From an uncultured Pelagibacteraceae bacterium (GTDB lineage Bacteria > Pseudomonadota > Alphaproteobacteria > Pelagibacterales > AG-422-B15), in contig CACNCV010000003.1 in NCBI GenBank assembly GCA_902619105.1, positions 180,311 to 244,310 of the forward strand: DNA of 64,000 nt. The letters run 5' to 3'. Below the pieces are notes generated by a model. It worked only from the letters and a program-made list of their open reading frames with translations, ran no database searches and was not told the DNA's origin. Shown here one piece after another: positions 5,388-50,893 of this stretch; positions within the stretch are counted from its first letter, which is position 1; each line of letters opens with the position of its first letter. Both the position numbers and the translations under genes were made by a program.

Positions 5388-5405
5388 TAAAGATTAGTGA
5401 TTTTT

Positions 5406-10701: not shown

Positions 10702-10704
10702 AAT

Positions 10705-11640: not shown

Positions 11641-11641
11641 G

Positions 11642-19493: not shown

Positions 19494-19570
19494 GCGCCGG
19501 TGGCTCAGCTGGATAGAGCACCAGACTACGAATCTGGGGGTCGGGAGTTCGAATCTCTCCCGGCGCGCCA
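19494..19570 (+). tRNA. tRNA-Arg (anticodon ACG), CCA encoded
   Basis: Cloverleaf by eye. Acceptor GCGCCGG/CCGGCGC, anticodon stem CCAGA/TCTGG with loop CTACGAA, T arm GGGAG TTCGAAT CTCTC, 3' GCCA. Confidence 0.95.
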
Positions 19571-34776: not shown

Positions 34777-36546
34777 ATGTCGTACAAAAGTCCAATAGAA
34801 GATTTCAAATACAATCTTGCTATGCTTAACTATGATGAGGTCATTGCTGGTATAGAGAAGTTCAAGGAATATGACTCCGAAACACTCATGAGCGTTGTTT
34901 CTGAAATTGGGCGCCTTAATGAGCAAGAAGTACTAGATAGTAATAAAATTGGCGACAGAGAAGGCTTAAAATATGTCACTAATGGAGCAGAGGGTCCTGA
35001 AGTGCACACCCCTGAAAGATTTAAGAAGTTGTATGATGCAGTAAAGGCCTCAGGCTATGTTGGCGCTACCATGCCCACTCAATATGGCGGTGGTGGAGCT
35101 CCGTTCACGACTGCAATACTTGCAGGAGAGATCGGTATTGCCGCTAATATGGCATTCTACATGGGTCCAGGATTAAGTCATGGAGCAATGAAGACCATCT
35201 TAAAAAAAGCTACAGAGGAACTTAAAGATAAATATCTACCCAACATGACTTCTGGTGAATGGATGGGTACGATGTGCCTTACAGAACCACAATGTGGGAC
35301 TGATCTCGGTTTAATAAAATCAACTGCAATTCCTAAAGATGATCATTTTGAATTAACAGGCCAAAAAATTTGGATTTCATTTGGTGAACATGACTTAACA
35401 GAAAATATAATTCATCTTGTGCTTGCAAGAACACCAGATGCACCCGAAGGTATTAAAGGAATAAGTTTATTTCTTGTACCAAAGCGACTAGATGATAATT
35501 CTCGAAATACAATTTATTGTGGCGGTTTAGAACATAAACTTGGAATTAATTCATCACCAACCTGCGTCATGAATCTTGAAAACGCAAAAGGTTGGCTTGT
35601 TGGAGAAAAAAATAAAGGAATGGAAGCAATGTTTCTGATGATGAATGATGCGCGTCTAAAAGTTGGACTGCAAGGTATAGCAATGTCTGAGATCTCATAC
35701 CAAAACGCCTTAGAATTTGCAAAAGAAAGAAAACAAATGAGGTCCGTTGTCAAGGATAAGCAAGACAAAGATAGTAAGGCTGACAATATAATCGTTCATC
35801 CTGACGTAAGAAGAATGCTAATGAATGTAAAGGCAACAACTGAAGCAATGCGTGCATTATGCATTTATACAGCAATGAAAATTGATCTTGCGGAAGATCA
35901 TCCTGATGAAAAAGTACGACAGGAAGCTGATGATTTTGCCGCGTTAATGACACCAATAATTAAAGCTTACTGCACTGATAGAGGTTTTTTAAATTGCTCA
36001 GAATCTTTACAAGTCTTAGGTGGTAGCGGTTTTACAAAGGAATATCCTCTCGAACAGTACATGCGAGATGTAAGAATTACAATGATATATGAAGGTACAA
36101 ATGGCATTCAGGCGTTAGACCTAGTTGGAAGAAAATTAACGATGCATCAGGGACGGTTGTTACAAAATTTCCAAAAAGAAGTGCAAAAATTTCTGTCTGA
36201 AAATAAGGATAATGCAGAAATATCCTCATTTATTAAACCTCTCGAAAATGCTCTTAATGAAGTTACTGCTTCAACAATGTGGTTAATGCAAAACGGCATG
36301 CAGGATCCTGAAAATGCCCTTGCTTCTGCCACTGATTACCTAAATTTAGTAGCTCTATCGTCGATGACCTATATGTGGGCGCGTATGGCAAAATTCTCTA
36401 TCGGCAAAAATGAACCAATTCATAAAAATAAAATAAAAACTGGAACTTATTTTGTAGAAAAGATTATGCCAGAGCTAACTATGTACTCAAAGAAGGTGCA
36501 AGCTGGCAAGTCTTCAATGATGGATATGGAAGTTGCAGAGTTTTAA
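34777..36546 (+). CDS. Long acyl-CoA dehydrogenase with extra C-terminal helical domain
   Basis: MCLTEPQCGTDLG motif, YEGTNGIQALDLVGRK motif, 589 aa. Confidence 0.85.
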   Translation: MSYKSPIEDFKYNLAMLNYDEVIAGIEKFKEYDSETLMSVVSEIGRLNEQEVLDSNKIGDREGLKYVTNGAEGPEVHTPERFKKLYDAVKASGYVGATMPTQYGGGGAPFTTAILAGEIGIAANMAFYMGPGLSHGAMKTILKKATEELKDKYLPNMTSGEWMGTMCLTEPQCGTDLGLIKSTAIPKDDHFELTGQKIWISFGEHDLTENIIHLVLARTPDAPEGIKGISLFLVPKRLDDNSRNTIYCGGLEHKLGINSSPTCVMNLENAKGWLVGEKNKGMEAMFLMMNDARLKVGLQGIAMSEISYQNALEFAKERKQMRSVVKDKQDKDSKADNIIVHPDVRRMLMNVKATTEAMRALCIYTAMKIDLAEDHPDEKVRQEADDFAALMTPIIKAYCTDRGFLNCSESLQVLGGSGFTKEYPLEQYMRDVRITMIYEGTNGIQALDLVGRKLTMHQGRLLQNFQKEVQKFLSENKDNAEISSFIKPLENALNEVTASTMWLMQNGMQDPENALASATDYLNLVALSSMTYMWARMAKFSIGKNEPIHKNKIKTGTYFVEKIMPELTMYSKKVQAGKSSMMDMEVAEF

Positions 36547-37734
36547 TTAAGACCTATATCCTAATTGTCTTGCAGCTAAATCGTACATTATTTCTTCTGA
36601 TCCACCACCAATTGCATTAACCCTTACTTCTCTATAAATTCTCTCAACTTTTCCAGGTCCGCTATTAGCTCGAAGATATCCTGCTCCACCTAATATTTGC
36701 ATTGCTTCTCTTGCGCATAGTTCCATCGCTTTACTCGCATGCACTTTCAGCATTGCCAAGTCTGCAATTGGACTTTCACCATTCATTACTCTCCAAGATA
36801 GCAATTCTGTCCAAGCCCTTGATGTTTTAACTGCTCTGTTCATATCAACGAGTTTATGTTTTATAACTTGATTATCAATCAACGGCTTACCAAATGTTTT
36901 TCGCTCTTTTGCCCAAGCTACTGCTTCATCAATACAAATTTGAGAGTATGCATTCATACCAGCTGCCATACCAAGTCTTTCTTGACTGAAGTTACTCATT
37001 ACGCCAATCCAGCCGCTGTTTTCTCCACCAATCAAATTTTCTACAGGTACTTTACAATCATCAAAGTAAAGTACAGCTGTATCAGAGCTTAGCCATCCCA
37101 TTTTTTTTAGAGGAGTTTGCGTGAAGCCAGGCGTATCCTTTTCAATTACCAGAACTGAAATTCCAGTAGCACCTTCACCACCAGTTCTCACTCCAACTAC
37201 ATATGTATCAGCACGCATTCCACTTGTAATGAACATTTTTGAGCCATTAACAATGAAATGGTCGCCTTTTCTAACTGCTTTAGTTTTCAAACTTGCAACA
37301 TCTGATCCTCCCGAAGGTTCTGTCATTGCAAGAGCTGCTATTTTTTCTCCTCTTACCACCGGGGGAATAAATTTTTCTTTTTGTTCTTCTGTACCCAAAG
37401 ATTGTATCAATGGTATTGCAATATTGTGCGATAAAAGACTTGCTGAAACACCGCCACATCCATGGGCGAATTCCTCGGCTGTTACGATACCGTGAAAAAT
37501 ATCAATACCTTCTGTTGTACCGCCATACTTTTCATCATAGCCCATTCCCATTAGACCTACATCAGCAGCTTTTTTATAGAGTTCTCTTGGAAACTCACCA
37601 GCTTCTTCCCATTCTTCAACAAAAGGAGCTATTTCCTTTGAAACAAATTTTCTTACTTCTTCTCTCCATGCATGATGAGACTCATTATAAAAAAGAGGTT
37701 CTTTACCCTCAGAAATTCCAACTTTTGGTATCAT
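36547..37734 (-). CDS. Acyl-CoA dehydrogenase
   Basis: ALAMTEPSGGSDVAS, QILGGAGY and IGGGSEEIM motifs. Confidence 0.9.
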   Translation of the reverse strand: MIPKVGISEGKEPLFYNESHHAWREEVRKFVSKEIAPFVEEWEEAGEFPRELYKKAADVGLMGMGYDEKYGGTTEGIDIFHGIVTAEEFAHGCGGVSASLLSHNIAIPLIQSLGTEEQKEKFIPPVVRGEKIAALAMTEPSGGSDVASLKTKAVRKGDHFIVNGSKMFITSGMRADTYVVGVRTGGEGATGISVLVIEKDTPGFTQTPLKKMGWLSSDTAVLYFDDCKVPVENLIGGENSGWIGVMSNFSQERLGMAAGMNAYSQICIDEAVAWAKERKTFGKPLIDNQVIKHKLVDMNRAVKTSRAWTELLSWRVMNGESPIADLAMLKVHASKAMELCAREAMQILGGAGYLRANSGPGKVERIYREVRVNAIGGGSEEIMYDLAARQLGYRS

Positions 37735-38579
37735 ATTATTTCACTAACTCCATTTTTAATTACCATTTTATCACGTTCTTTGACTTTGCACTGATAATAA
37801 ACATTATTACCATCTTTCCACATTTCTGTAACTATTGTTTCTCCAGGATATACAGGTGAAGAAAAACGACAATCAAATCTTTTAAGTTTCTTTACATCTC
37901 TATCGCAGACACTTTCTATAATTGATCTGCATGCTATACCGTATGTGCACATGCCATGTAGAATTGGCCGTTCAAAACCAGCAGACTTTGCAAAATTTGG
38001 ATCAGAGTGCAATGGATTGTAATCACCAGAAAGTCTAAAAATTAATGCTTGATCAGGTTTGGTATTTATTTCATGCACATAATCTGGTTTACCCTCAGGT
38101 CTTACTAATTCTTTTTTTGGAGACTCAGGTCCACCAAAGCCACCATCCCCCCTAGCGAATGTTGTACTAACGAGCTTACAGATTTCCGTATTATCTTTTT
38201 TAAGATTTACAGTTGTTTCAACCTCAATAATTGCACCCTTACCAGGACCTTTATCATAACAACCTATAACTTTTGCGTTGGATATAAAATCTCCTGAGAC
38301 AGGTAAAGGATTAGTTACTGATAATCTCTGTTCACCATGAACAACCATAATGAAATTAATATTTGTCTTCAGCAATAATGGTGAGTGATATTGAAAATTA
38401 GTAGCCATTGACGGCAATGCAATTTGTGAATTTTCATAGACAAACTTTAATTCATCTAAATTCATTGGGTTATTCCCAAGACCGACGCCTAGACTATAGA
38501 GAATTGAGTCTTTATCAGTATAGGAAACTTCAATATTTTCTGAAGTCATGGACATTATTTCTTCGTAATTAATAGCCAT
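37731..38579 (-). CDS. MaoC-like (R)-specific enoyl-CoA hydratase, double hot-dog (hydratase-2 type)
   Basis: RLSGDYNPLHSDPNFAKSAGFERPILHGMCTYG hydratase-2 motif in the C-terminal half. Confidence 0.8.
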   Translation of the reverse strand: MAINYEEIMSMTSENIEVSYTDKDSILYSLGVGLGNNPMNLDELKFVYENSQIALPSMATNFQYHSPLLLKTNINFIMVVHGEQRLSVTNPLPVSGDFISNAKVIGCYDKGPGKGAIIEVETTVNLKKDNTEICKLVSTTFARGDGGFGGPESPKKELVRPEGKPDYVHEINTKPDQALIFRLSGDYNPLHSDPNFAKSAGFERPILHGMCTYGIACRSIIESVCDRDVKKLKRFDCRFSSPVYPGETIVTEMWKDGNNVYYQCKVKERDKMVIKNGVSEII

Positions 38580-38654
38580 TTTTTATGTATTTCTCTAATT
38601 TTTAAATGTATATATACTTTATATAGATCACTTATCTAAAGCGAGGAAAAAAAC

Positions 38655-39506
38655 ATGCCAAAACCCTTTGATGTTGAAATAAATAATTCAATTGCTCATA
38701 TCAGGTTCAATAGGCCTGAAAAAAGAAATTCAATGAACGAGGATTTCTGGAGATTATTTCCAAAGGAAGTTGAAGAGCTAGATGATAGTGGTGATATTAG
38801 AGCTTTAATTGTATCTTCCACGGGACCACACTTTTCCGCTGGAATAGACCTTAGCATGTTTAAAGATGATGTTGTTGAACACGAAACAAACCAAGAGCTT
38901 GGCAGAAGTAGGGGGTATTTTATTCAACAGTTAAAGTTTCTGCAACGTGCCGCATCATGTTTGGAGGATGCGAGATTTCCAGTTGTTGCTGCTGTCCAAG
39001 GAGGATGTATTGGTGGAGGTATCGATTTAATCACTGCCGCTGATATAAGACTTTGTACAAAAGATGCATTTTTTTTAATTGAAGAAATAAATGTTGGTTT
39101 GGCAGCAGATATTGGAACTATACAAAGATTACCAAAAATTATACCTGCTGGTATAGCGCGTGAGTGGACTATGATGGGAGAAAAGATATCTGCTGAAAGA
39201 GCAAAAGAAGTAGGACTTGTGAGCTCTTTGCATGATAGTCATGAAGAAATGATTGATAGTGCTTTTGAAATGGCTGAAAAATTAGCATCAAAAACACCAC
39301 TTGCGATGTGGGTTACAAAAGAAGTTCTCAATTATTCAAGAGATCACTCTGTTAAAGAAGGTTTAGATAATGTAGCGCTTTGGAATGCAGCTACGCTTCA
39401 TAAAGAAGATGTAATGACTACAATGATGTCAAAAATGCAAAAGAAAAAGCCAGAGTATAGAAATTTAAGAGATAAAAATTTCTTGAAACATAAATCAAGT
39501 AAATAG
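38655..39506 (+). CDS. Crotonase-family enoyl-CoA hydratase/isomerase, delta3,5-delta2,4-dienoyl-CoA isomerase-like
   Basis: NRPEKRNSMNEDFW...GPHFSAGIDL and AAVQGGCIGGGIDL motifs resemble ECH1-type isomerases. Confidence 0.8.
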   Translation: MPKPFDVEINNSIAHIRFNRPEKRNSMNEDFWRLFPKEVEELDDSGDIRALIVSSTGPHFSAGIDLSMFKDDVVEHETNQELGRSRGYFIQQLKFLQRAASCLEDARFPVVAAVQGGCIGGGIDLITAADIRLCTKDAFFLIEEINVGLAADIGTIQRLPKIIPAGIAREWTMMGEKISAERAKEVGLVSSLHDSHEEMIDSAFEMAEKLASKTPLAMWVTKEVLNYSRDHSVKEGLDNVALWNAATLHKEDVMTTMMSKMQKKKPEYRNLRDKNFLKHKSSK

Positions 39507-39529
39507 TATTTTTAATAAATTAAATTTTA

Positions 39530-40399
39530 ATGAGATTTAAAAAAGGCATTATTCTCGCTGCCGGCAAGGGGACTCGACTTTCGCCTGCAACAAAAGTAAC
39601 AGTGAAGCCTCTTCTGCCTTTATATGATAAACCTTTACTTTATTACGCGTTATCAAACTTAATTAAGGCTGGTGTTCGCGAGGTACTATTTATATCTCAA
39701 AAGAAAGATATACCAGAATTTAGAAAACTATTTGGCTCGGGAAAACAGCTTGGCATGAAATTCAGTTACACATTTCAAAAAAAACAAGTCGGAATTCCTG
39801 ATGCAGTTAATATTGCCAAAAGATTTATTAATAAAAAACCATTTGTTTTAGCCTTAGCTGATAATTTATTTGTTGGTAAGAGCTTTACATCAACTCTAAA
39901 AAAAGTTCAGTCGCTCAAGGATGGAGCTGCTGTTTTAGCTGTAAAGACAAAATATCCACACAAATCAGCAGTTATTGAATACGATAGAGAAAAAAATATA
40001 AAATCAATTATTGAGAAACCAAAAAAACCAAAGAGTAATCTTACAATACCCGGTCTTTATTTTTATGATAAGGACTCCATATCAATTGTTAAGGATTTAA
40101 AGCCCTCCAAAAGAAAAGAATTAGAAATAGTTGATGTTCATCAATCTTATCTAAGAAAGAAGCTTTTAAATGTTTTTACATTAAAAAAAGATGTTAAGTG
40201 GTTTGACACTGGTGATGCTGAAGAAATGCTTGAAGCTTCAAACTATATTAACAAATATCAAATAAAAGAAAAAAAGCTATTTGGATCTATCGAAATGGAC
40301 TCATACCTAAATGGATGGATTACAAAGAAACAACTTAGAATTCTTATTAATCAAATGCCCGACTCAAAGTATAAAGAAAAATTAAGTTCACTTGCTTAA
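39530..40399 (+). CDS. Sugar-1-phosphate nucleotidyltransferase, RfbA (glucose-1-phosphate thymidylyltransferase)-like
   Basis: GIILAAGKGTRLSPATKVTVKPLLPLYDKPLLYYALSNL, EKPKKPKSN..PGLYFYD and ELEIVDV align closely with E. coli RfbA motifs. No rfbBCD nearby. Confidence 0.8.
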   Translation: MRFKKGIILAAGKGTRLSPATKVTVKPLLPLYDKPLLYYALSNLIKAGVREVLFISQKKDIPEFRKLFGSGKQLGMKFSYTFQKKQVGIPDAVNIAKRFINKKPFVLALADNLFVGKSFTSTLKKVQSLKDGAAVLAVKTKYPHKSAVIEYDREKNIKSIIEKPKKPKSNLTIPGLYFYDKDSISIVKDLKPSKRKELEIVDVHQSYLRKKLLNVFTLKKDVKWFDTGDAEEMLEASNYINKYQIKEKKLFGSIEMDSYLNGWITKKQLRILINQMPDSKYKEKLSSLA

Positions 40400-40899
40400 T
40401 GTTTGATAAAAATTCATTAATAAATTTGTTAAAGTCAAATTCTATTAGTTACAAAATTACTGAACATAAACCGCTGTTTACAGTCGAAGATTCTAAAAAT
40501 CTCCGAGGTTCAATTGATGGCGCGCATTCAAAGAATCTTTTTTTGAAAGATAAAAAAAATAATTTTTTTTTAGTAAGTTTTATTGAGGATATTATAGCTG
40601 ATCTAAAAAAAGCATCAGTACCTTTAAACTCCAAAAAATTATCCTTTGCAAATGAGGATTATTTAATGAATATTCTAGGTATCAAACCTGGATCAGTATC
40701 TCCGTTTGGATTATTAAACGATAAAGAAAAAAAAGTTAAATTTTTCTTTGATCAAGAGTTTATGGAGTATGAAATTGTGAATTTTCATCCTTTAATCAAT
40801 ACGTCAACAGTGTCGATAGCTCCGAATGATCTGATAAATTTGATTGAACAGCATCATTCAAAAGTCGAATTTATAAAGATGAGAGATTTTCAAAAATGA
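40399..40899 (+). CDS. YbaK/ProX-type aminoacyl-tRNA editing (deacylase) domain protein
   Basis: 166 aa. HSKNLFLKDKK and GIKPGSVSPFGL motifs are typical of free-standing YbaK/ProX domains. Confidence 0.6.
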   Translation: MFDKNSLINLLKSNSISYKITEHKPLFTVEDSKNLRGSIDGAHSKNLFLKDKKNNFFLVSFIEDIIADLKKASVPLNSKKLSFANEDYLMNILGIKPGSVSPFGLLNDKEKKVKFFFDQEFMEYEIVNFHPLINTSTVSIAPNDLINLIEQHHSKVEFIKMRDFQK

Positions 40900-41429
40900 C
40901 TCTAAGAAAAGCAAAATTTATTAAAACCAAGAAAAAAATTAAAGCGAATGTTTTTGATTTATATTTTGATGAAGTTAAATGGGTAAATGGAAACAAAACT
41001 TTTAGGGATCTTATTGTACACAATGGTATAACTTGTATTGTTCCAATAATTGATAAGAAATTTATAGTTTTGCTCAAACAATATCGATACGGATCAGATC
41101 AAATTATGCTTGAAGTCCCAGCAGGGACTATTGACCCAGGAGAAAGGCCATTAAGTTGTGCTAAAAGAGAATTAATTGAAGAAACCGGTTATCATGGAAA
41201 AAATTGGAAAATGATAGGCAAATACTTTTCAACCCCGGCATATAACACTTGCTTAGTGCACTGCTATCTAACTCATTGCTATAAGAAGAGTGAGACAAAT
41301 TTTGACGAAGATGAGGTTATTGAGACAAAAATTTATTCAGTCCAAGAAGTAAGAAGACTACTTAAAACTAATAAGATTAATGATATGAAAACTTATATCA
41401 GCCTTGATCGATTTATGAATTATTATTGA
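40896..41429 (+). CDS. Nudix hydrolase (ADP-ribose pyrophosphatase-like)
   Basis: Nudix box GTIDPGERPLSCAKRELIEETGY. Confidence 0.8.
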   Translation: MTLRKAKFIKTKKKIKANVFDLYFDEVKWVNGNKTFRDLIVHNGITCIVPIIDKKFIVLLKQYRYGSDQIMLEVPAGTIDPGERPLSCAKRELIEETGYHGKNWKMIGKYFSTPAYNTCLVHCYLTHCYKKSETNFDEDEVIETKIYSVQEVRRLLKTNKINDMKTYISLDRFMNYY

Positions 41430-41860
41430 TTTAATATTTTCCAAATACCTGAGGCAGATAAAATAATTTTATCTTGTGAGATCAAATTACCCTCAATAAA
41501 GACGAGTGATTTCGTAGTTCTTGTGACCTTAGCGTCACATTCAACAATATCATCCTGAAGACCTGGACTTACAAAGTTACAATTCAGTGAAATAGTACTG
41601 CACGGTTTTTTTCCACACGCAGCAAATACCATAGATCCTAAGAAAATATCTGCTAATGACATAGAGTAGCCACCATGCGCAATACCATGAGCATTGAGAT
41701 GCTTATCCAAAATTTTAGTAATGAATTTATATTGGTTATTCTCTTCTTTTTTAAAATACATTGGCCCAACTAAGACATCGAAGCCAGCATGCCATCCAAG
41801 TTTTTTGTATCCTTCTGGAACCCAGCTTGGTGCTGATACTTCCGTCTTTAACATGACCAT
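41423..41860 (-). CDS. PaaI-family hot-dog acyl-CoA thioesterase
   Basis: NAHGIAHGGYSMSLADIFLG motif, 145 aa. Confidence 0.75.
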   Translation of the reverse strand: MVMLKTEVSAPSWVPEGYKKLGWHAGFDVLVGPMYFKKEENNQYKFITKILDKHLNAHGIAHGGYSMSLADIFLGSMVFAACGKKPCSTISLNCNFVSPGLQDDIVECDAKVTRTTKSLVFIEGNLISQDKIILSASGIWKILNQ

Positions 41861-42048
41861 AGAGAATCTCCCTAATTCAAAGAATGCGACTTTCTAAACT
41901 TCATTACGGATATGGTCAAGCAGAATAAAGAAAAATATTTGCCAAAATTGAGGGTATTTTTGATGTATTTTTAAATAAAATTAAACTTTTTTTTTTATAT
42001 AAAAAGTCTATCTTACGGTTTTCTAAATATTTATAAGGGCAATATAGT

Positions 42049-43230
42049 ATGAGAGAAGCTGCAATAATTTCAACTGCAAGGACTGGATTAGCAAAAGCTA
42101 TGAGAGGTGGATTTAACAAAACTCACGGCATTACAATGGGAGGCCATACTGTTAAACATGCTATTGAAAGAGCAGGAGTTGAAGCTGGTGAAGTAGAAGA
42201 TGTAATTTTTGGATGCGGACAACCAGAGGGAGCAACAGGTCATAACATTGGAAGAAATGTTGCAATTGCAGGTGGATGCCCCGTAACTGTGCCAGGTACT
42301 ACAATAAATCGTTTTTGTTCATCAGGTTTACAATCAATAGCGGTAGCTGCTCAAAGAATTATTGTTGATGGAATTAAAGTAGCTATAGGTGGGGGAGTTG
42401 AGTCAATATCAATGACACAGCAAAACATGAACATGAAACATCTTATTGAGCCTGAACTTCAAAAAATTTGTCCAGCATTATGGATGCCTATGATTAATAC
42501 TGCTGATGTTGTAGCAGATCGATACAAAGTAAGCAGAGAATACCAAGACGAATATTCACTACAAAGTCAACAACGAACAGCTGCAGCTCAAACTGCAGGA
42601 AAATTTAAAGACGAGATTGTTCCTTTAACGACAAAAATGGATGTAATGAACAAAGAAACAAAGGAAGTTACAGAACAAGAAGTAACAGTTGATAAAGATG
42701 AGTGTAATCGACCACAAACTACACTTGAGAGCCTTGCTGGTTTAATGCCAGTCATGGGACCTGATAAATATATTACTGCGGGTAATGCTAGTCAGCTGTC
42801 AGATGGAGCATCTTCATGTTTGTTAATGGATCTTAAAGAAGCAGAAAAAAGAAATATTGAACCTATGGGAATTTTTAGAGGACTTTCTGTTGCAGCTTGT
42901 GAGCCCGATGAGATGGGTATAGGACCAGTATTTGCTGTACCAAAACTCCTAGAGCAACACGGCTTAAAGGTAGATGATATCGATATATGGGAACTGAACG
43001 AAGCATTTGCAGTTCAAGTTTTATACTGTAGAGATAAGCTAGGAATTGATAATGAGAAATTAAATGTGAACGGAGGATCAATTTCTATTGGACACCCATA
43101 TGGTATGACCGGCTCTAGAATGACAGGACATATTTTAATCGAAGGTAAGAGACGAAACGCTAAATACGGTGTTGTAACAATGTGCGTTGGTGGCGGAATG
43201 GGAGCAGCAGGTCTTTTTGAGATTTTATGA
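42049..43230 (+). CDS. Acetyl-CoA C-acyltransferase (3-ketoacyl-CoA thiolase)
   Basis: NRFCSSGLQ (active Cys), NEAFA, GGSISIGHPYGMTG and CVGGGMG motifs. Confidence 0.95.
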   Translation: MREAAIISTARTGLAKAMRGGFNKTHGITMGGHTVKHAIERAGVEAGEVEDVIFGCGQPEGATGHNIGRNVAIAGGCPVTVPGTTINRFCSSGLQSIAVAAQRIIVDGIKVAIGGGVESISMTQQNMNMKHLIEPELQKICPALWMPMINTADVVADRYKVSREYQDEYSLQSQQRTAAAQTAGKFKDEIVPLTTKMDVMNKETKEVTEQEVTVDKDECNRPQTTLESLAGLMPVMGPDKYITAGNASQLSDGASSCLLMDLKEAEKRNIEPMGIFRGLSVAACEPDEMGIGPVFAVPKLLEQHGLKVDDIDIWELNEAFAVQVLYCRDKLGIDNEKLNVNGGSISIGHPYGMTGSRMTGHILIEGKRRNAKYGVVTMCVGGGMGAAGLFEIL

Positions 43231-43598
43231 TAGATACAATTAAATACATTGAAAAAATAGCTCTGGTAATAATTATTTTTGCTACAGTTATAGCTATTGG
43301 CTATGAAATATATGCAATGTATGAAAAAAACCTCGTTGAACTTGCAGACTTACTTTTGTTATTTATTTATCTCGAAGTTATACAAATGATTAGAGAATAT
43401 TGGACACTAAATAGAATTAGAATAAGTATACCGCTGTTTATTGCAATTACTGCTGTTGCACGTTTAATAATCTTACAGGGCAAAACTATGGATCCAAGCA
43501 TGTTGCTTTACGAGGGTGGCGCCATTTTATTGATTGCCATAGCTGTTCTTATATTAAAAGCAAGAAAGCTTAAAATATTCGCCGATGTTGACGACTAA
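43227..43598 (+). CDS. PsiE-family (phosphate-starvation-inducible E-like) membrane protein
   Basis: 123 aa, 4 TM helices. FIYLEVIQMIREYW...FIAITAVARLIILQ parallels E. coli PsiE FLYFEFIALIVKYF...IGITAIVRLIIVD. Confidence 0.55.
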   Translation: MIDTIKYIEKIALVIIIFATVIAIGYEIYAMYEKNLVELADLLLLFIYLEVIQMIREYWTLNRIRISIPLFIAITAVARLIILQGKTMDPSMLLYEGGAILLIAIAVLILKARKLKIFADVDD

Positions 43599-44019
43599 GA
43601 TTGTTAAAGGATTAGTACTTCCATTTTTGGTTGTCCTATTAATAAGCACATCTGCATTTTCACTTACTGATGAGGACGAACAAGAGATTATTTCTGTTGT
43701 AAGTCAGCAGCTGCAAGCATTTCAAAATGATGATTTCGAAAAAGCTTATTCTTTCGCATCGCCAATTATTAAGAAAATATTTCCAAGTCCAAAAGCGTTT
43801 GGTGAAATGGTTGTAGGTCAGTACCAGGCCGTTTATCGTCCCAAAAGTGTGAACTTTGGCAAGATATCACTTAGAGATGGAGTACCTTCCCTAGAAGTAT
43901 ATTTAGTTGATCCTGAAGGCGAATTCGTAACTGCAATTTACTCAATGCAGCAACAAGAAGACGGTAAATGGCTTATTAATGGTTGTTTTCTTACTCAGGC
44001 AGAGAGTAACGAAATTTAG
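43585..44019 (+). CDS. Secreted small protein, DUF4864-like (NTF2-like fold?)
   Basis: Signal peptide. The C-terminal EFVTAIYSMQQQEDGKWLINGCFL resembles DUF4864 proteins, from memory only. Confidence 0.4.
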   Translation: MLTTKIVKGLVLPFLVVLLISTSAFSLTDEDEQEIISVVSQQLQAFQNDDFEKAYSFASPIIKKIFPSPKAFGEMVVGQYQAVYRPKSVNFGKISLRDGVPSLEVYLVDPEGEFVTAIYSMQQQEDGKWLINGCFLTQAESNEI

Positions 44020-45260
44020 GATTGAGAGTTTCTGATAATTTGTTCGTAAAATTTTAGACTTTCTTTGCTTTTTCTTTTTAAAGTATCTCTATTCACCTCG
44101 ATTAAACCAAAACGCGGTTTGTAGCCATATATCCATTCAAAGTTGTCCAGAAATGACCAATAGTAATAACCTCGAATATCTAAACCGTCATCTAAACAGC
44201 TTTGAAGTCCTTTTAATGCTGTAGTGATATATTTTATTCTTTGATTATCATCATCTGTGCCAATCCCATTTTCAGTCACAATCATTGGGCAATTTATTTT
44301 TGGAGCAACATACCTCAATACATTTTCTAATGACTCAGGATAATATTCATATCCCATAACAAGCATATTTTCATCATTGACGTTAGGTTTCATGATGCCC
44401 TCAGGACCATAGGTGTGACGTGTATACGTTTGAATACCAATGAAATCGTCATCCTTAGTTTGATCCAAACACACATCCACTGTTTCAGCATGAGCAATGT
44501 CGCGTGTTTGTTCGCCTCCTTCTGCCGCTTGGTAATCCATAATTGAAAGCGTAATACCAACAGGCTGATTTTTTGTAAGTAGACCTTTAATAACTGGAAA
44601 TGCTTTTACATGCGCCGCCATCATACAGTCACGTATTTTATAGGGATGGCCAAATAGAAAAGGGCCAAAATTATCTAGAGTTGACCCGCATGATTTAGCA
44701 GCATCTTCAACAAATGGCATGATAGTTTTCATTCCTTGTTCAGGGTAGCTAGGAAATGTGTGTGCAAAACATGCAGTTAGATTTGCCTCATTTATTGTAC
44801 AAACCGTATCTATACGGTCACCTAGCTCTTTTGTTACAAATTCAGCATATTTAACATATAAATCTGCGTTTTCCTTTTTTTCCCAACCTCCTTTAGCTGT
44901 AAACCAAAGCGGGGAAGTGAAGTGTTGGAATGTGACGCACGTTTGAAGATTATTTTCATGACAACAATCCAAAACTTTTTTGTAATGATCAATTGCTTCT
45001 TTTGAAAATTCTCCCTCGGACTCTTCGATACGAGCCCATTCAATAGATAGTCTATAGGACTGTATTGCGTGAGATGACATAAGCTTAATATCTTCCTCGT
45101 ATCTATTCAATTGATCACAAGCAATTCCTGACGGTTCAGCAAATGTGGTATTTTTTGTATTTTCAAGCAGCCAAAAATCTGAGTTTGTATTATTTCCTTC
45201 TACTTGATGGGCAGCAGTCGCTGTACCCCATATAAAGTCTTTTGGTAAATTAAGTTTCAT
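44016..45260 (-). CDS. Glycoside hydrolase family 1 beta-glycosidase
   Basis: FIWGTATAAHQVEGN N-terminus, acid/base TINEAN, nucleophile VTENGIG, C-terminal YYYWSFLDNFEW. Confidence 0.9.
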   Translation of the reverse strand: MKLNLPKDFIWGTATAAHQVEGNNTNSDFWLLENTKNTTFAEPSGIACDQLNRYEEDIKLMSSHAIQSYRLSIEWARIEESEGEFSKEAIDHYKKVLDCCHENNLQTCVTFQHFTSPLWFTAKGGWEKKENADLYVKYAEFVTKELGDRIDTVCTINEANLTACFAHTFPSYPEQGMKTIMPFVEDAAKSCGSTLDNFGPFLFGHPYKIRDCMMAAHVKAFPVIKGLLTKNQPVGITLSIMDYQAAEGGEQTRDIAHAETVDVCLDQTKDDDFIGIQTYTRHTYGPEGIMKPNVNDENMLVMGYEYYPESLENVLRYVAPKINCPMIVTENGIGTDDDNQRIKYITTALKGLQSCLDDGLDIRGYYYWSFLDNFEWIYGYKPRFGLIEVNRDTLKRKSKESLKFYEQIIRNSQS

Positions 45261-45262
45261 GA

Positions 45263-46294
45263 TTATATAAATTTAGCATTTGGATACCCATCAAGAATAT
45301 ACTTTTTAAGTTCTTCAACCAGCTCTTTTTTTACTAAAGTTACGATTGCCCCACCAAAACCAGCTCCAGTAAGTTTAGATCCTAAAGCGCCAAAGGAATT
45401 AGATAGATCAACCAACTTATTTAAATTATCAGTTGAAACTCTATAGTGTCGTGATAAAGAAATATGACTTTCTGTCATTAATTTTCCAAATTCTTCAGCT
45501 TTATTATCTTTTAAATATTGAGCTGCTTTTACAACTCTCAAATTTTCCTCAATTACATGTTTACTAACATTAAGCTCTTCATCTGAAAGTAATTGAATAT
45601 CATTTTCATCAATTTTTGTTTTTGTACAGAGACTTTGAATTTTCATTTTTTTTGCAGCATTGAGACACAATTCTTTTTTTTTGTTAAACTCACTATCTGA
45701 TAAAATCCTTTGTGTGTTGCTATCAATTATTAGAAATTGATAATCTTGAAAAATTGGTATCAATTCATAATTTTTATTAAAGGTATCAAGAAAAAGAGCT
45801 TCATAATGATTTCCTAAGACCGATACAAATTGATCCATAACTCCACCGCCCACACAAACAAAATCATTTTCAACCTCAAATGCTAAATTAATTAAATCTT
45901 CATCTGCTAAATTTTTTTTAAAATAGCAACTTAGCGATTTTAAAGTACTAACGGTGATTGCAGCAGAGGAAGACAGACCGACCCCCAATGGAAGGCTGCT
46001 TTTGATATGAATTGAGATATTGTTAATCTTAACTGAAAATTTCTTCTCAAAATAAAGACATGATCCAATAACGAAATCTGCCCAATTATTTCTTTTTTCG
46101 AGTTTCTTAACAATTAGAGAGTCCTTATATTTATCTGATACTATCGAAATAGATTCACTATTTTTATTTTCAACGATCTCACAGATAATTGAGTTCTTAA
46201 TTTGTAATGGTAAAACATGTCCACCATTATAGTCTAAATGCTCCCCAATGAGGTTAACTCTGCCAAATCCCTCACCAATCGAGACTGTGTTCAT
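45263..46294 (-). CDS. galK: Galactokinase-family anomeric sugar kinase (GHMP)
   Basis: Galactokinase signature GRVNLIGEHLDYNGG, GHMP motif PLGVGLSSSAA, C-terminal GAGFGG. Confidence 0.85.
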   Translation of the reverse strand: MNTVSIGEGFGRVNLIGEHLDYNGGHVLPLQIKNSIICEIVENKNSESISIVSDKYKDSLIVKKLEKRNNWADFVIGSCLYFEKKFSVKINNISIHIKSSLPLGVGLSSSAAITVSTLKSLSCYFKKNLADEDLINLAFEVENDFVCVGGGVMDQFVSVLGNHYEALFLDTFNKNYELIPIFQDYQFLIIDSNTQRILSDSEFNKKKELCLNAAKKMKIQSLCTKTKIDENDIQLLSDEELNVSKHVIEENLRVVKAAQYLKDNKAEEFGKLMTESHISLSRHYRVSTDNLNKLVDLSNSFGALGSKLTGAGFGGAIVTLVKKELVEELKKYILDGYPNAKFI

Positions 46295-46297
46295 AAC

Positions 46298-47629
46298 TTA
46301 ACTTTGTCTTTGTTTTAATTCAGAAAATATTCTTTCATAAAAGTTACTGTCGTACTTATTAAAGTACGTAACTATTATTGCTATAGTTCCGGCAACGGCT
46401 GGAAAAATATATCCCATAATAAATAGACCATTCAATGTTTCTGGACTTTGATCTATTGCATTTGCCACATAGTCTGTACTTTCAAGAATTACTCCAGCAA
46501 GCCATGCACTAAAACCAACACTTAATTTAAAAACAAATACGTGAGCTGCGTTTAAGACTCCTTCAGCACGAAATCCAGATTTCCATTCACCATATTCGAT
46601 TGTGTCAGCTATCATTGACCAGGCCATGACACCTGCCATACCGAAACCAATGAAGCCAAAGGTTGCAATAAAAGCTAATAACCAAAAGTTTTCATACCCA
46701 GTAATATAATAGATTATTAAATCTGTGATTACGTAAAGAAATGTTCCAATCATGAATAAAGTCTTTTTCTCAAACCTATGTTTTATTAAGTTAACTAAAT
46801 ATGCACCTAACATAATTTGTAAAATTACTCCAAGCAAAATTGGACTAAAGTAAGCCTCTAATTGAAGATTATATTTTACAAAATAGACAACTGTTAGTTG
46901 CTTGATATTATTTGCAACCCAAGTTGTTAAAAGTGCCAATATTACGAAATGTAATGGATAATTGTTAAATACCATTTTAGTAACTTTTTTAATACCAATG
47001 GTTTCTTCATATGGCTTTGAATAAACTTCTTTAGTATTAAAAAAACATAGGAATGCAAAAATAGCTCCAAGGACTGCTAAACAACCTACTACAATTGGAA
47101 ATCCGAACTGTGGTGAGCTAAAAAGGCCAACTAGAGGCAATGTTAGAACTGCAACAGCAATTGATCCAGAGCTAGCTCCTAAATATCTAAATGATGCGAG
47201 TGATGTTCTTTCATCTCTGTCTTGAGTCATCGCCGGAATGAGCGATCCAACTGGAATAGCAATGATTGTATATAAAGTGGTAAATGTAATGTATGTAAAA
47301 AGTGCCCAATAAAATTTACCCGTTTGTGACAAATCAGGTGAGGTAAAGCATAAAATAATCATTATTAGCGCAGGTACTGATCCAAACAAAATATAAGGTC
47401 TGAATTTCCCCCATCTGGTCGAAGTATTATCTGCAATATACCCCATAATCGGGTCAGTAAATGCGTCCCAGATTTTCGCTAAAAAGAAAACTAAGCCAGC
47501 ATTTGCAGGCGATAATCCAAAAATATCTGTATAAAAAAATAGTAAGTAGAAGACAGTCAGTTGCCACATTATATTAATGGCAAAATCACCACCACCGTAA
47601 AACAATTTTGATCTAAAACTTAGTTTCAT
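46298..47629 (-). CDS. Glycoside-pentoside-hexuronide (GPH):cation symporter, MelB/YicJ-like
   Basis: 12 TM helices. N-terminal YGGGDFAINIMWQLTVFYLLFFYTDIFGL and DAFTDPIMGYIADNTSTRWGKFRPY are GPH hallmarks. Confidence 0.85.
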   Translation of the reverse strand: MKLSFRSKLFYGGGDFAINIMWQLTVFYLLFFYTDIFGLSPANAGLVFFLAKIWDAFTDPIMGYIADNTSTRWGKFRPYILFGSVPALIMIILCFTSPDLSQTGKFYWALFTYITFTTLYTIIAIPVGSLIPAMTQDRDERTSLASFRYLGASSGSIAVAVLTLPLVGLFSSPQFGFPIVVGCLAVLGAIFAFLCFFNTKEVYSKPYEETIGIKKVTKMVFNNYPLHFVILALLTTWVANNIKQLTVVYFVKYNLQLEAYFSPILLGVILQIMLGAYLVNLIKHRFEKKTLFMIGTFLYVITDLIIYYITGYENFWLLAFIATFGFIGFGMAGVMAWSMIADTIEYGEWKSGFRAEGVLNAAHVFVFKLSVGFSAWLAGVILESTDYVANAIDQSPETLNGLFIMGYIFPAVAGTIAIIVTYFNKYDSNFYERIFSELKQRQS

Positions 47630-48768
47630 AGGGCATCATATATTGTTTCAACTAATTTAAGTGCTCTTTGATCACCGAGCATGGATCCAGTTAATAAATT
47701 CATTGTGTATGCGCAGCTAATTCCATTTTCAGGATCCCCAAATGCCATAGAACCGCCCCATCCAGTATGACCAAATGCTTTACTGCTTTTACCAAATAAT
47801 TTTCCACCACCGACACTATAACCTGCATGTGACCACTGCATAGGTGACTTCATTACATGATCGTCTCCACTTACAGCAACTGTAGTAAGAGTTTCAAAGG
47901 TATTTGATGAAATAAATTTATTTGATAAATGCGATAAGAAAAAATCATAAATTTTTGCAAGTGATCCTGAATTAGAGTGACAGTTCATAGCTGGAATTTC
48001 CGCAAGTCGCCATTCAGCTGTATTTGCTGTTTTTGTTCTGTTTGCAGGATTAAGAAACGCAGTAATTAGATACTCATCTACATTTGTCGGATCACTGAAA
48101 GCTTTCCTTAGGCTTTCAGAACTAATTAGTTCAGCAATATTGTCATGATATGCTGAAGGTGTACCTATAAAACATTTGGTTTCAAGAGGACTATTCAGTA
48201 ACTCCTCCAAGTTCTTACCGACTGATTTATTGGTCACTCGTTTAATTAATTCACCAACTAAAAAACCGATCGTTTTTGGATGATAACATATTTTTTCATC
48301 AGCTTTATGATATGGTTCTTGATTTGCCAACAGATCAACTACATAGTCCCATTTGTAAAAATCGGTTTCATCTATAGGCTGTCTCCATCCATACATCCCT
48401 GCTTGATGGGAGAGTAATGTTTTTACTTTTATACTTTCTTTTCCGCCGTTCGCAAATTCAGGCCAGTAATCAGCAACATTTTTCTCTAAATCTAGTTTGT
48501 TTTCATCAATCAATTTAGCAACAATCATCGCAACGATACCCTTACTGGTTGAGTGGATATTTACTATTGTATTTTGGTCCCACTTGTTTTTTTTATCACG
48601 ATCCCGATAGCCGCCATAAAGGTTCACCAAAACTTCTCCATTTTGATAAACGGCAAATGATGCACCCACCTCCTCATCATTTTCTAAGTTTTTCTTGAAT
48701 AATTCGTAAGTGTTTTCGAACTTTTTATTAAACTCACCCAATTCTGTTATCTCATTTTCTGTAGTCAT
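47626..48768 (-). CDS. Serine hydrolase of the class C beta-lactamase / family VIII esterase fold
   Basis: SxxK motif HSTSKG near the N-terminus, no signal peptide. 380 aa. Confidence 0.8.
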   Translation of the reverse strand: MTTENEITELGEFNKKFENTYELFKKNLENDEEVGASFAVYQNGEVLVNLYGGYRDRDKKNKWDQNTIVNIHSTSKGIVAMIVAKLIDENKLDLEKNVADYWPEFANGGKESIKVKTLLSHQAGMYGWRQPIDETDFYKWDYVVDLLANQEPYHKADEKICYHPKTIGFLVGELIKRVTNKSVGKNLEELLNSPLETKCFIGTPSAYHDNIAELISSESLRKAFSDPTNVDEYLITAFLNPANRTKTANTAEWRLAEIPAMNCHSNSGSLAKIYDFFLSHLSNKFISSNTFETLTTVAVSGDDHVMKSPMQWSHAGYSVGGGKLFGKSSKAFGHTGWGGSMAFGDPENGISCAYTMNLLTGSMLGDQRALKLVETIYDAL

Positions 48769-48814
48769 TTATAGTGTCATAAGGCTTTTATTTATATATT
48801 CTGCAGTAGATTAT

Positions 48815-49723
48815 ATGACAGAGCAGAATAACAAAACATATTTAATAGGTTTTATACTGGCACTATCTGCTGGTTTGATATGGAGTTTTGGAGCTCCTAC
48901 CGTTAGGTACATGGTAGATGCTCAGGTCTATCAATGGCACTACCTTTTTTATAGAGGTATAGTTGTAGCAACAATTTTGTTGATATATTTGATTTATAAC
49001 GAAGGAATTTCTTTCTATCATAATTTTAATAGAGTTGGATCATCTGGCTTATTGGGTGGTATTGGTCTTGCTGCAGCTTTTATATTTTTTATTTTTGGAA
49101 TGACTTATACCTCTGCGGCTACCACATTATTTATGATTGGCACACAACCATTATTTGCAGGGCTCTTTGCATATATTTTTCTAAAAGAAAAAATTGGCAT
49201 CACAACTGCGATAGCATGTTTTGTATCTTTGTTTGGAATCTTTCTCATGGCTTATAATGACTGGTACGCAGGAACCTTTTTAGGTTGGGTATTTGGTTTA
49301 TTCTGTTCTATTGGATTTGCAATATTTGCAACAACGCTCAGATGGCAACCAGACACACCTAAATTTACAACAATCATTATTGCTGGTATTACCTGCTCAC
49401 TTTTTTCAATGATTATGATTGTTTTATTTACTGATAGTTACTCAATGCCGTTACAAAATATTTTATTAAGTATGCTACATGGAACTTTAGTTGGGATTGG
49501 ACTTATACTTTTAAGTTTAGGTGCGCGCTATCTGCCTGCAGCAGAATTTATGTTACTTTCTTTAACAGAAGTTGTGGGAGGAGTAATTTGGTGTTGGATA
49601 CCTTTATTTGGAGTAAACGAAGTTCCCTCAAACATAACTTTAATGGGCGGCTTGGTAATTATTATTGCTATAAGTTTTTATGCTTTTGGTTCTACAAAAA
49701 AAACTACACCTCCAACACTATAG
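48815..49723 (+). CDS. DMT superfamily (EamA-type) transporter
   Basis: Start moved to ATG at 48815 (MTEQNNKTYLIGF). The listed start at 48710 would overlap the divergent hydrolase gene. 10 TM helices. Confidence 0.75.
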   Translation: MTEQNNKTYLIGFILALSAGLIWSFGAPTVRYMVDAQVYQWHYLFYRGIVVATILLIYLIYNEGISFYHNFNRVGSSGLLGGIGLAAAFIFFIFGMTYTSAATTLFMIGTQPLFAGLFAYIFLKEKIGITTAIACFVSLFGIFLMAYNDWYAGTFLGWVFGLFCSIGFAIFATTLRWQPDTPKFTTIIIAGITCSLFSMIMIVLFTDSYSMPLQNILLSMLHGTLVGIGLILLSLGARYLPAAEFMLLSLTEVVGGVIWCWIPLFGVNEVPSNITLMGGLVIIIAISFYAFGSTKKTTPPTL

Positions 49724-49729
49724 AAACGT

Positions 49730-50893
49730 ATGAGTGATATTGATAATGTTAATTGGAATTATCCTACCCCAATATGGTTTGGTTTAGGCCGTTCCCTAGA
49801 GATTCAAAATGCCTTAGAAGCTCAAGGTATGCAAAATCCTTTAGTTGTAACCGATCCAGAATTTACCTCTAATAAAAACTTTATAAAAATTATTGAATTA
49901 TTGAAAAATAATAAAATCAAATATTCAATTTTTTCAAATATCAAAGGAAATCCAACAGGTAAGAACGTAATGGATGGGGTTGAACACTTTTTGTCTAATA
50001 ATAACGATGGTGTAATAGCGATCGGCGGAGGCAGTTCTCTTGATGCTGGTAAAGCAATTGCATTCATGACAAAACAAAAAGAAAATCTGTGGTTTTTCGA
50101 AGATATTGGGGATAATTGGACAAGGGCAATTACAGATCAACTTCCAAAAGTAATTGCGATACCAACTACGGCTGGGACTGGTTCTGAAACAGGCCGCGCA
50201 TCACTTATTTTGGACGAAAGTGATAAAACAAAAAAAATAATATTTCATCCCTCGTTCTTACCAGACCTTGTAATACTTGATCCAAATTTAACTTTATCTC
50301 TTCCACCTCATCTCACAGCCGCAACAGGTATGGATGCTTTAGCTCATTGTTTAGAGGCATACTGTGCTAGAGGTTTTCATCCTATGGCGGATGGTATTGC
50401 ACTAGAAGGGATAAAGAACGTGAGGGATAGTCTTCTAAGTGCTTATAAAAATCCTGATGATATCTTTGCAAGATCGAAAATGTTAGTAACATCATCAATG
50501 GGATCGACTGCATTTCAAAAAGGACTAGGAGCAATACATTCTCTTTCACATCCTATAAATGCAGTTAATGATATTCATCATGGTCTCTCGAATGCAATAT
50601 TTATGCCATATGTACTTAAATTTAATGAACCGATTATAAGTCAGAGGATACAACTTTTAACAAAATACTTAGAATTAGAAAATTCAACATTTGACGGATT
50701 TCTGTCGTGGATATTGAGGCTAAGAGATGAACTCGCTATTCCTCATACTCTAAAGGAGCTTAATCAAGAATTTGATTTTGAGCTACTTAGTGAAATGGCA
50801 TTGAAAGATCCATCCACTGGACCAAACCCACGCGATATAAGTCTTGATGAAATGAAGCAACTTTACATTAACTCATATGAGGGTATTCTATAA
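49730..50893 (+). CDS. Iron-containing (group III) alcohol dehydrogenase
   Basis: GGGSSLDAGKA, PTTAGTGSE and metal-site His motifs (HxxxH: HSLSHPI). Confidence 0.9.
   Translation: MSDIDNVNWNYPTPIWFGLGRSLEIQNALEAQGMQNPLVVTDPEFTSNKNFIKIIELLKNNKIKYSIFSNIKGNPTGKNVMDGVEHFLSNNNDGVIAIGGGSSLDAGKAIAFMTKQKENLWFFEDIGDNWTRAITDQLPKVIAIPTTAGTGSETGRASLILDESDKTKKIIFHPSFLPDLVILDPNLTLSLPPHLTAATGMDALAHCLEAYCARGFHPMADGIALEGIKNVRDSLLSAYKNPDDIFARSKMLVTSSMGSTAFQKGLGAIHSLSHPINAVNDIHHGLSNAIFMPYVLKFNEPIISQRIQLLTKYLELENSTFDGFLSWILRLRDELAIPHTLKELNQEFDFELLSEMALKDPSTGPNPRDISLDEMKQLYINSYEGIL

Follow-up and report, generated by a model that had tools for sequence, protein, structure and literature searches.

The window analysed here is a 64,000-nucleotide stretch of DNA from an uncultured Pelagibacteraceae bacterium (assembly GCA_902619105.1, contig CACNCV010000003.1), and it contains a block of four genes whose products are a family VIII-type serine esterase, a GPH-family symporter, a galactokinase-family kinase and a glycoside hydrolase family 1 (GH1) β-glycosidase. 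We believe, with moderate confidence, that this block is a catabolic module of one SAR11 lineage for a small β-linked glycoside that is taken up intact, and that the sugar is most likely galactose; the substrate is possibly an O-acylated β-galactoside. The four are working genes that have long been inherited within that lineage. The enzymes are of known types; their combination, and the presence of a galactokinase in SAR11, seem to be undescribed, and we found no description of this operon or of a SAR11 galactokinase in the searchable literature.

Based on our observations, we propose the following model for the pathway. First, the GPH symporter would bring in the glycoside together with a cation, either Na+ or H+. 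Once in the cytoplasm, the β-glycosidic bond would be cut by the retaining GH1 enzyme, and the freed hexose, most likely D-galactose, would be phosphorylated at C1 by the galactokinase-family enzyme. The O-acyl group would be taken off the imported compound or its aglycone by the family VIII esterase, which would be made from the same message. Since there are no Leloir genes nearby, we place the handling of galactose-1-phosphate (Gal-1-P) outside the block, where it would be processed by the products of other genes.

The block spans 44016-48768 and consists of four consecutive minus-strand open reading frames (Table 1). The open reading frame listing of the window agrees exactly with the four genes, coordinates and junctions given in an original prediction that was made from the letters of the window, and the motifs quoted there (STSK, GRVNLIGEHLDYNGG, NEAN and TENG) were each found in the protein concerned. 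The family annotations proposed at that time were upheld by Pfam, NCBIfam and PDB matches. The cytoplasmic location proposed for the hydrolase is supported as well, an N-terminal hydrophobic leader being absent from all four translations. The esterase and transporter genes overlap by 4 nt (ATGA), 3 nt lie between the transporter and kinase genes and 2 nt between the kinase and GH1 genes, and the 3' end of the GH1 gene shares 4 nt with a convergent DUF4864 gene. Strand switches bound the block at both ends, making the four genes a co-directional island.

Table 1. Positions of the four genes of the block, of the region upstream of it and of a neighbouring nucleotidylyltransferase trio in the window.
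Feature	Positions	Strand	Remarks
Esterase gene	47626-48768	minus	380 aa; first gene of the block
GPH symporter gene	46298-47629	minus	443 aa
Galactokinase-family kinase gene	45263-46294	minus	343 aa
GH1 β-glycosidase gene	44016-45260	minus	414 aa; last gene of the block
Divergent intergenic region	48769-48814		46 nt; between the esterase gene and an EamA-family gene
RmlA-type sugar-1-phosphate nucleotidylyltransferase gene	39530-40399	plus	3.6 kb from the GH1 gene; speculative downstream partner
Tightly overlapping trio	39530-41429		headed by the RmlA-type gene, with YbaK/EbsC-like and NudE/NudK-like NUDIX hydrolase genes

To place the block within bacterial diversity, a GH1 alignment was used to scan one genome per GTDB species and the 80 best GH1 loci were considered. 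The scan returned 20 Pelagibacteraceae species representatives (single-amplified and metagenome-assembled genomes), in which the GH1 proteins are 75-99% identical; the next matches, from Binatia, Chloroflexota, Deltaproteobacteria and others, were at most 57% identical, and the four-gene block was not found outside the Pelagibacteraceae among these 80 loci. Every Pelagibacteraceae locus that was long enough showed all four genes, with order and site unchanged, and with EamA, Fe-ADH (iron-containing alcohol dehydrogenase) and DLH genes on one side and DUF4864, variably PsiE, and thiolase genes on the other. Contigs from Tara Oceans and other metagenomes carry the identical arrangement, and the gene order is identical in all 26 complete loci (the 20 species representatives together with the Tara and other metagenome loci). 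Proteins identical to those of the block occur on contigs of the single-cell genomes GCA_902633755.1 and GCA_902574005.1; further assemblies that carry the block include QCMN01 (AG-422-B15) and CABZIW01. The single-cell contig CACPHM010000002.1, which bears identical block proteins, does not contain the whole window: by coordinate arithmetic it would stop at about position 32,900, and the genes to the left of this occur on CACGLT010000005.1, a contig of another single-cell genome, and on a further contig of 0.2-1 Mb. Ocean metagenome assemblies contain the four proteins in hundreds of instances, single clusters at 90% comprising 800-885 member sequences. Across the 26 complete loci the esterase/transporter junction is always -4 nt, the transporter/kinase junction ranges from +3 to +9 and the kinase/GH1 junction from -4 to +2, and the lowest protein identities among loci are 57% for the esterase, 70% for the transporter, 45% for the kinase and 71% for the GH1 enzyme. 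Pairwise ratios of non-synonymous to synonymous substitution rates (dN/dS) of 0.02-0.17 over the block genes, with the exception of one near-identical transporter pair at 0.28, indicate purifying selection; by gene, the values are 0.03-0.06 for the GH1 enzyme, 0.04-0.09 for the esterase, within 0.02-0.09 for the transporter (that pair excepted) and 0.12-0.17 for the kinase, the highest of the four.

The Pelagibacteraceae assignment that the genome records of the block loci carry bears out the SAR11-type source proposed for the window in the original prediction. The block had also been described as accessory and niche-defining. Its confined distribution agrees with an accessory status at the level of the family; however, it is not a recent island, being syntenic, matched in guanine-plus-cytosine (GC) content and stably inherited. 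As the GC content of the genes (0.30-0.37) is close to that of the window (0.344), nothing suggests a recent foreign origin.

The block is also a recombination mosaic. Loci L009 and L010 are 96% identical in the esterase and 98% in the GH1 enzyme, but only 75% in the transporter and 54% in the kinase, a pattern also seen between L009 and L014; between L009 and L010 the central transporter-kinase pair, corresponding to 45263-47629 in the window, has been exchanged as one piece for a highly diverged allele. In L013 the esterase, transporter and kinase are window-like (89%, 96% and 78%, respectively) and the GH1 enzyme is equally far from the two groups. At least six kinase allele classes, mutually 45-56% identical, coexist in SAR11, and these classes or swapped pairs could be specificity variants. 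There is variation in the flanks as well: an additional gene for a 317-aa NAD_binding_2/NAD_binding_11 protein (3-hydroxyisobutyrate dehydrogenase-like) lies between the Fe-ADH and EamA genes in L013, L016-L020 and L083-L088, and the PsiE gene is absent from L015-L018 and L083-L088.

We believe that the four genes are likely to be expressed as one transcript, because they form a co-directional island, have no terminator-like site between them and are preceded by invariant upstream motifs. In 16 of 16 distinct sequences of the divergent intergenic region, ATATATAA is found approximately 30 nt upstream of the esterase gene and ACACTATAA directly before its ATG, while the esterases of the lineages behind these sequences are only 57-76% identical. 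Conserved non-coding motifs are confined to this 5' region, which we presume to be the promoter and translation-start region of the block; ATATATAA and ACACTATAA are likely to be shared promoter or translation-start signals, or an operator. The region contains no Shine-Dalgarno-like sequence. A consensus promoter and terminator scan of 43400-49400 gave nothing above shuffled controls; no terminator-like site was seen inside the block, the single scan match lying just outside it at 43579-43594. There is no regulator gene adjoining the block, and an Rfam scan of the window revealed no riboswitch or leader near it.

Each protein of the block matches its superfamily, yet falls below the curated equivalog models or passes them marginally, with the exception of the transporter, which clearly passes TIGR00792. 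The kinase is the protein that points to galactose. Its PF00288 (E = 5e-19), PF08544 (E = 9e-13) and PF10509 (E = 6e-11) domains all score above the gathering thresholds, it passes the TIGR00131 galactokinase model marginally (234.4 bits against a cutoff of 226.65), and its best PDB matches are the short-form Pyrococcus galactokinases 2cz9 and 1s4e (E = 6e-53). The catalytic Asp and Arg and the Glu-His-x-Asp sugar motif of galactokinases are present: R12, E18, H19, D21 and D154 align with their counterparts in 2cz9, 1s4e, 1pie and 1wuu and are invariant in 27 SAR11 copies, as are the PxGxGLSSSAA and TGAGFGG nucleotide motifs in the SAR11 copies. The resemblance to the Pyrococcus enzymes extends to the short architecture of approximately 345 aa, the GHMP motifs, the Asp/Arg pair and Glu-His-x-Asp; in contrast to them, the SAR11 kinase has Phe or Leu in place of the Tyr of the S-E-Y motif and lacks an adjacent galT. 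The SAR11 kinases stand apart as a clade of their own, with no more than 40% identity to the next family representatives. The protein is a galactokinase-family GHMP anomeric sugar kinase that would most likely phosphorylate D-galactose at C1.

The GH1 protein (PF00232, E = 1e-72) appears to be a cytoplasmic β-glycosidase for non-phosphorylated substrates. Residues Q19, H113, N157-E158 (with E158 the acid/base), Y279, E330 (the nucleophile), W368, E375 and W376 are invariant in 30 members of the clade and 23 SAR11 orthologues; the counterpart of E158 in SGR_2426 is the acid/base Glu168, and both the N-E-x-N and the T-E-N-G signatures are present. E375 belongs to the NFEW motif, whose Glu bridges O4 and O6 and is replaced in 6-phospho-glycosidases, an established diagnostic feature. 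This Glu is kept in the block enzyme, which scores 84-180 bits on 6-phospho-β-glycosidase models with cutoffs of 561-686. An enzyme acting on non-phosphorylated glycosides would fit uptake by a symporter rather than by the phosphotransferase system. The best PDB matches are 4r27 (BGL167, E = 9e-108), 6ier, 8kap/9u98 (SGR_2426) and 1vff. With this subgroup of approximately 410-435 aa, which comprises BGL167, Bgl1317 (6ier), SGR_2426 and BGPh of Pyrococcus horikoshii (1vff), the block enzyme shares full-length alignment (E = 9e-108 to 6e-66), an identical catalytic Glu pair and identical subsite -1 residues, and a short form without a signal peptide. It is nevertheless distant from other proteins, as its nearest non-SAR11 homologues in a search of 5.8 billion proteins are only 52-58% identical.

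The transporter is likely to work by cation symport. It scores 393.2 bits on the TIGR00792 GPH model (cutoff 231.35) over residues 8-441, matches PF13347 (MFS_2, E = 2e-86) and has MelB (4m64, E = 5e-45) as its best PDB match. In the alignment with 4m64, Asp55, Asp59, Tyr120 and Thr121, which we take to form the cation site of MelB, are kept, whereas Asn58 is replaced by Thr. The protein falls below every cutoff of the YagG, UidB and MelB models, reaching 238 bits of the 456 required by the MelB equivalog.

The esterase carries a PF00144 β-lactamase domain (E = 8e-50), and its best PDB matches are 5gmx and 5gkv (E = 3e-68), then 7y3z and 8j5v, all named as carboxylesterases or esterases. It has the S-x-x-K motif, the Tyr and the C-terminal W-x-G/H-x-G box of family VIII carboxylesterases, and S73-T-S-K76, Y162 and H334-T-G-W-G-G339 do not vary among 21 distinct SAR11 orthologues. 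The class C β-lactamase fold, S-x-x-K, Tyr, the W-G-G box and a cytoplasmic location are common to the block protein and to the family VIII enzymes compared, namely 5gmx, 5gkv ('Esterase A'), the fenoxaprop-p-ethyl hydrolase 7y3z, 8j5v and LipL (E = 3e-68 to 1e-50 for the carboxylesterase structures). It differs from them in lying below every curated equivalog cutoff (146 bits against 650 for the NCBIfam LipL esterase/β-lactamase model), and we found no report of a family member that leads a glycoside operon. A class C β-lactamase in the sense of a resistance enzyme was considered and rejected, given 45.7 bits on NF033085 (cutoff 415) and the lack of a signal peptide for periplasmic export; the N-terminus, which begins MTTENEITELGEF, is acidic and has no visible signal peptide. 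We therefore predict a cytoplasmic family VIII-type serine esterase rather than a resistance enzyme, although the fold would also allow amidase or peptidase activity. If the enzyme is cytoplasmic, any acyl group that it removes must come in on the transported molecule.

Several observations weigh against a galactoside pathway as we propose it. A route for Gal-1-P is not visible within the 64 kb: GalT (PF01087/PF02744), GalE (PF01370) and mutarotase (PF01263) domains are absent from the window and from 7 kb beyond one of its ends, so that galT, galE and galM are not encoded together with the kinase, and the Pfam labels of the window genes confirm the earlier statement that the window holds none of the three. 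Beyond SAR11, a galactokinase gene was near GH1 in none of 60 loci. The kinase scores below the cutoffs of the other galactokinase equivalogs (308 of 443 bits for PRK03817, 255 of 385 for PRK05322, and likewise PRK05101 and PRK00555). Furthermore, position 203 of the kinase, Phe in the window, is Phe (18) or Leu (9) in 27 of 27 SAR11 copies; the equivalent residue is Tyr in all four characterised galactokinases compared (2cz9, 1s4e, 1pie and 1wuu), and in 148 family representatives it is Tyr in 138, Phe in nine and Leu in one. The sugar-contacting Tyr (Tyr233 of the Lactococcus enzyme, Tyr236 of the human one) is therefore missing; we assume that this Tyr hydrogen-bonds a sugar hydroxyl, an assumption for which we did not find confirmation in the literature. 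In the transporter, Asp124 and Trp128, which we take to be the MelB sugar-site residues, are replaced by Ala and Gly in the alignment with 4m64, so that the protein does not qualify as a MelB and its sequence gives no clue to the sugar. The nearest characterised GH1 enzymes, BGL167 and SGR_2426, prefer glucosides, their galactosidase/fucosidase activity being weaker. Finally, tight spacing is the default of this genome and synteny is as strong in the flanks as in the block, and neither feature proves functional linkage.

This last point bears most heavily on the esterase. That the esterase is a bystander, a housekeeping or detoxifying enzyme packed into the block by streamlining while the transporter, kinase and glycosidase alone cooperate, is a view that we consider doubtful but one that has to be reckoned with. 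Approximately 96% of the window is coding, and 37 of its 45 same-strand neighbour pairs are at most 10 nt apart, 20 of them overlapping; fmt and truA are an example of close neighbours with unrelated functions. With a median same-strand gap of 1 nt, tight junctions say little about functional coupling, and least about that of the esterase. The original prediction had spoken of a tightly coupled operon into which an esterase had been drawn: the spacing really is tight, though no tighter than is usual in this genome, and the esterase gene does lie on the same strand with an invariant ATGA overlap, though this is weak evidence where nearly all neighbours abut. In addition, synteny spans the whole region and not the block alone, and PF00144 proteins are common and functionally diverse. 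Outside SAR11, a PF00144 gene whose product is about 32% identical to the esterase occurs within a few kilobases of a related GH1 gene in just three of 63 loci, never adjacent to it. These are L050 and L064 of Parvibaculaceae and the metagenome contig L094, with GPH and/or esterase-like genes nearby. Such loose co-occurrence may be due to chance; however, it arises three times independently, which speaks for a link between the two enzymes. Against the bystander view we also count that all 26 complete loci keep the ATGA shared by the esterase and transporter genes, although their esterases are as little as 57% identical, that the esterase gene is promoter-proximal, behind the sole conserved non-coding motifs, and that the other three genes were never found at a locus lacking it.

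L094 (metagenome ERZ24794679) carries a GH1 gene of the sister clade (57% identity). Between 209 and 8248 of this contig lie, on the same strand, genes for a penicillin amidase, an SDR protein, a 380-aa PF00144 protein that is 32% identical to the block esterase and a URO-D family protein, followed by GH1.

The identity of the sugar is the second point at issue. The original prediction had favoured a galactoside over a glucoside; the kinase does pass TIGR00131, but it is the sole basis for this preference, and galactose is our best single guess on account of the kinase. Glucoside or mixed specificity is a live rival. According to this alternative, which we hold to be unlikely, the block would serve a β-glucoside or mixed β-glycosides such as laminaribiose, sophorose or an alkyl or aryl glucoside, with a kinase that is altered or broadened in specificity or that mops up minor galactose or fucose. 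The subsite -1 residues of the GH1 enzyme do not tell a galactoside from a glucoside. The closest characterised relatives are β-glucosidases, and SGR_2426 has the same Vmax/Km for p-nitrophenyl (pNP)-Fuc as for pNP-Glc, with pNP-Gal at approximately one-tenth of pNP-Glc. Among the NCBIfam families, the block enzyme scores best on the BGL model; at 257.8 bits it lies below the cutoff of 478.5 for that equivalog (TIGR03356), and it should thus not be named a β-glucosidase on that basis. The universal loss of the kinase Tyr in SAR11, a substitution that is rare in the family (10 of 148), would also fit a change of sugar, as would the status of the kinase as the fastest-evolving gene of the block, with its deeply divergent allele classes. 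On the other side, the kinase keeps the Glu/His pair of the galactose pocket together with the Asp and Arg, in addition to passing TIGR00131, and we know of no characterised member of the galactokinase family that is a glucose kinase. Sophorose specificity by analogy with SGR_2426 was rejected, as the two implicated +1-subsite residues, Gln229 and Trp291, correspond to Met241 and Tyr304 in the block enzyme.

A more specific version of the galactoside pathway would make the block a system for the use of lyso-galactolipids, that is, acyl-galactosylglycerols. Here the GPH carrier would import monogalactosyl-monoacylglycerol or a similar acylated β-galactoside, and the esterase would free a fatty acid that could feed the β-oxidation genes 1-9 kb away. 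Glyceryl-β-galactoside would then be split by the GH1 enzyme and the galactose trapped by the kinase, with Gal-1-P perhaps passing through a non-Leloir route that involves the neighbouring RmlA-type nucleotidylyltransferase. The original prediction had already proposed an acylated glycoside or a glyceryl-galactoside from algal galactolipids, an attractive idea that suits the gene set well. We regard this scheme as decidedly unlikely: no finding speaks against it, and the gene set, the lipid-catabolism neighbourhood and the homology of the transporter to MFSD2A are compatible with it, but none of them is specific. The N-terminal half of the transporter shows weak homology to the lysolipid symporter MFSD2A, as is the case for GPH members generally, and we take GPH carriers and MFSD2A to belong to the same family. 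A further hint is the alkyl-glycoside preference of the related Pyrococcus GH1 enzyme (1vff). The divergent Fe-ADH gene (49730-50893) was considered as a glycerol dehydrogenase and set aside, since its product does better on 4-hydroxybutyrate dehydrogenase and lactaldehyde reductase models, all below cutoff; it therefore lends no support to a glyceryl-galactoside.

How Gal-1-P would be used in the galactoside pathway that we favour leads to the genes beyond the DUF4864 flank. The RmlA-type enzyme scores 274 bits on TIGR01207 (rmlA; cutoff 360), and its best PDB match is the RmlA 1lvw (E = 5e-72); the window holds no rmlBCD. One may speculate that it turns Gal-1-P into NDP-galactose by a pyrophosphorylase-type route. 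The trio that it heads occurs in every block-bearing locus long enough to show it and has diverged to 64-79% identity, which is comparable to the block genes and faster than the β-oxidation genes with which it is interleaved (77-96%). It is odd that a producer of NDP-sugars should be paired in this trio with a hydrolase that may break them down. Salvage instead of catabolism, in which galactose would be converted through Gal-1-P to NDP-galactose by the RmlA-type enzyme for cell-surface glycans, appears highly unlikely to us, for although the window lacks Leloir genes, although this enzyme, without rmlBCD, is encoded near the block in all loci of sufficient length and diverges at a similarly fast rate, and although RmlA of Salmonella accepts Gal-1-P in vitro, its gene lies on the other strand, in a different trio and five unrelated genes from the block, it may also occur in SAR11 genomes that lack the block, and a dedicated importer and hydrolase would be costly for a sugar that GalE can make.

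The β-oxidation neighbourhood itself extends over 34777-43230 and includes genes for two acyl-CoA dehydrogenases, a MaoC-type hydratase, an enoyl-CoA hydratase, a hotdog thioesterase and a thiolase. One of the acyl-CoA dehydrogenases has 589 aa and an ACOX-like C-terminus.

The closest parallel to the block among known systems is the gal-lac system of Streptococcus thermophilus and lactobacilli, in which the GPH transporter LacS and a cytoplasmic β-galactosidase are encoded with galK and with galT, galE and galM. In both cases a GPH protein would import a non-phosphorylated β-glycoside, cleavage would be cytoplasmic and a GHMP galactokinase would trap galactose as Gal-1-P. In contrast, the SAR11 block has GH1 instead of GH2, a leading family VIII esterase, no regulator gene and no galT, galE or galM in 64 kb, and its kinase lacks the sugar-contacting Tyr. 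There is a looser likeness to lacZYA of Escherichia coli, a compact operon for a permease and a β-galactosidase with a third enzyme that acts on the acyl groups of galactosides. However, LacA is a hexapeptide-repeat transferase that adds acetyl whereas the SAR11 serine hydrolase would be expected to remove acyl, LacY and LacZ belong to families other than GPH and GH1, and the lac operon has no kinase.

Within marine Alphaproteobacteria, Getz et al. 2023 (PMC10308909) reported SAR11 to lack galKMT and AEGEAN-169/HIMB59 to possess it, paired with ABC transporters; the GC content of AEGEAN-169 ranges from 27.0 to 32.5% (PMC10308909). The block resembles that arrangement in linking a galactokinase to sugar uptake in a streamlined marine alphaproteobacterium, and differs from it in its GPH symporter, in the lack of linked galM and galT, in its Pelagibacteraceae host and in the GC content of the window (34%). 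An AEGEAN-169 origin of the window was considered and is unlikely, as the block-bearing records, metagenome-assembled genomes included, are named Pelagibacteraceae and the window GC falls outside the AEGEAN-169 range; the host is most likely SAR11 proper. In estuarine water, Pelagibacter has been noted in one metagenome survey as a dominant carrier of GH1 genes.

If our interpretation is correct, the block has consequences for how one lineage of SAR11 is seen. SAR11 is the most abundant heterotroph of the surface ocean and is usually portrayed as living on small, simple molecules and as having very few glycoside hydrolases. A conserved and strongly selected module for the import and cleavage of a glycoside would revise this picture for the lineage concerned, and it points to phytoplankton-derived glycosides as a niche resource. 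The occurrence of a galactokinase in SAR11 raises the question of what becomes of Gal-1-P when no Leloir genes are linked. If the esterase belongs to the pathway, the substrate would be an acylated glycoside, which would link SAR11 to glycolipid turnover; were lyso-galactolipids the substrate, the lineage would be able to draw on the membrane lipids that are most abundant in the phytoplankton and cyanobacteria with which it lives. Being either soluble or ordinary membrane proteins, the four should be amenable to expression and assay.

Elsewhere in the window, the Rfam scan gave two matches in all, a bacterial small signal recognition particle RNA (50.7 bits) and one tRNA, at 5293-5391 and 19494-19567. 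The region 9880-13054 carries a circularly permuted ATP-grasp gene together with Alpha-E and transglutaminase-like genes, a trio that is widespread and conserved.

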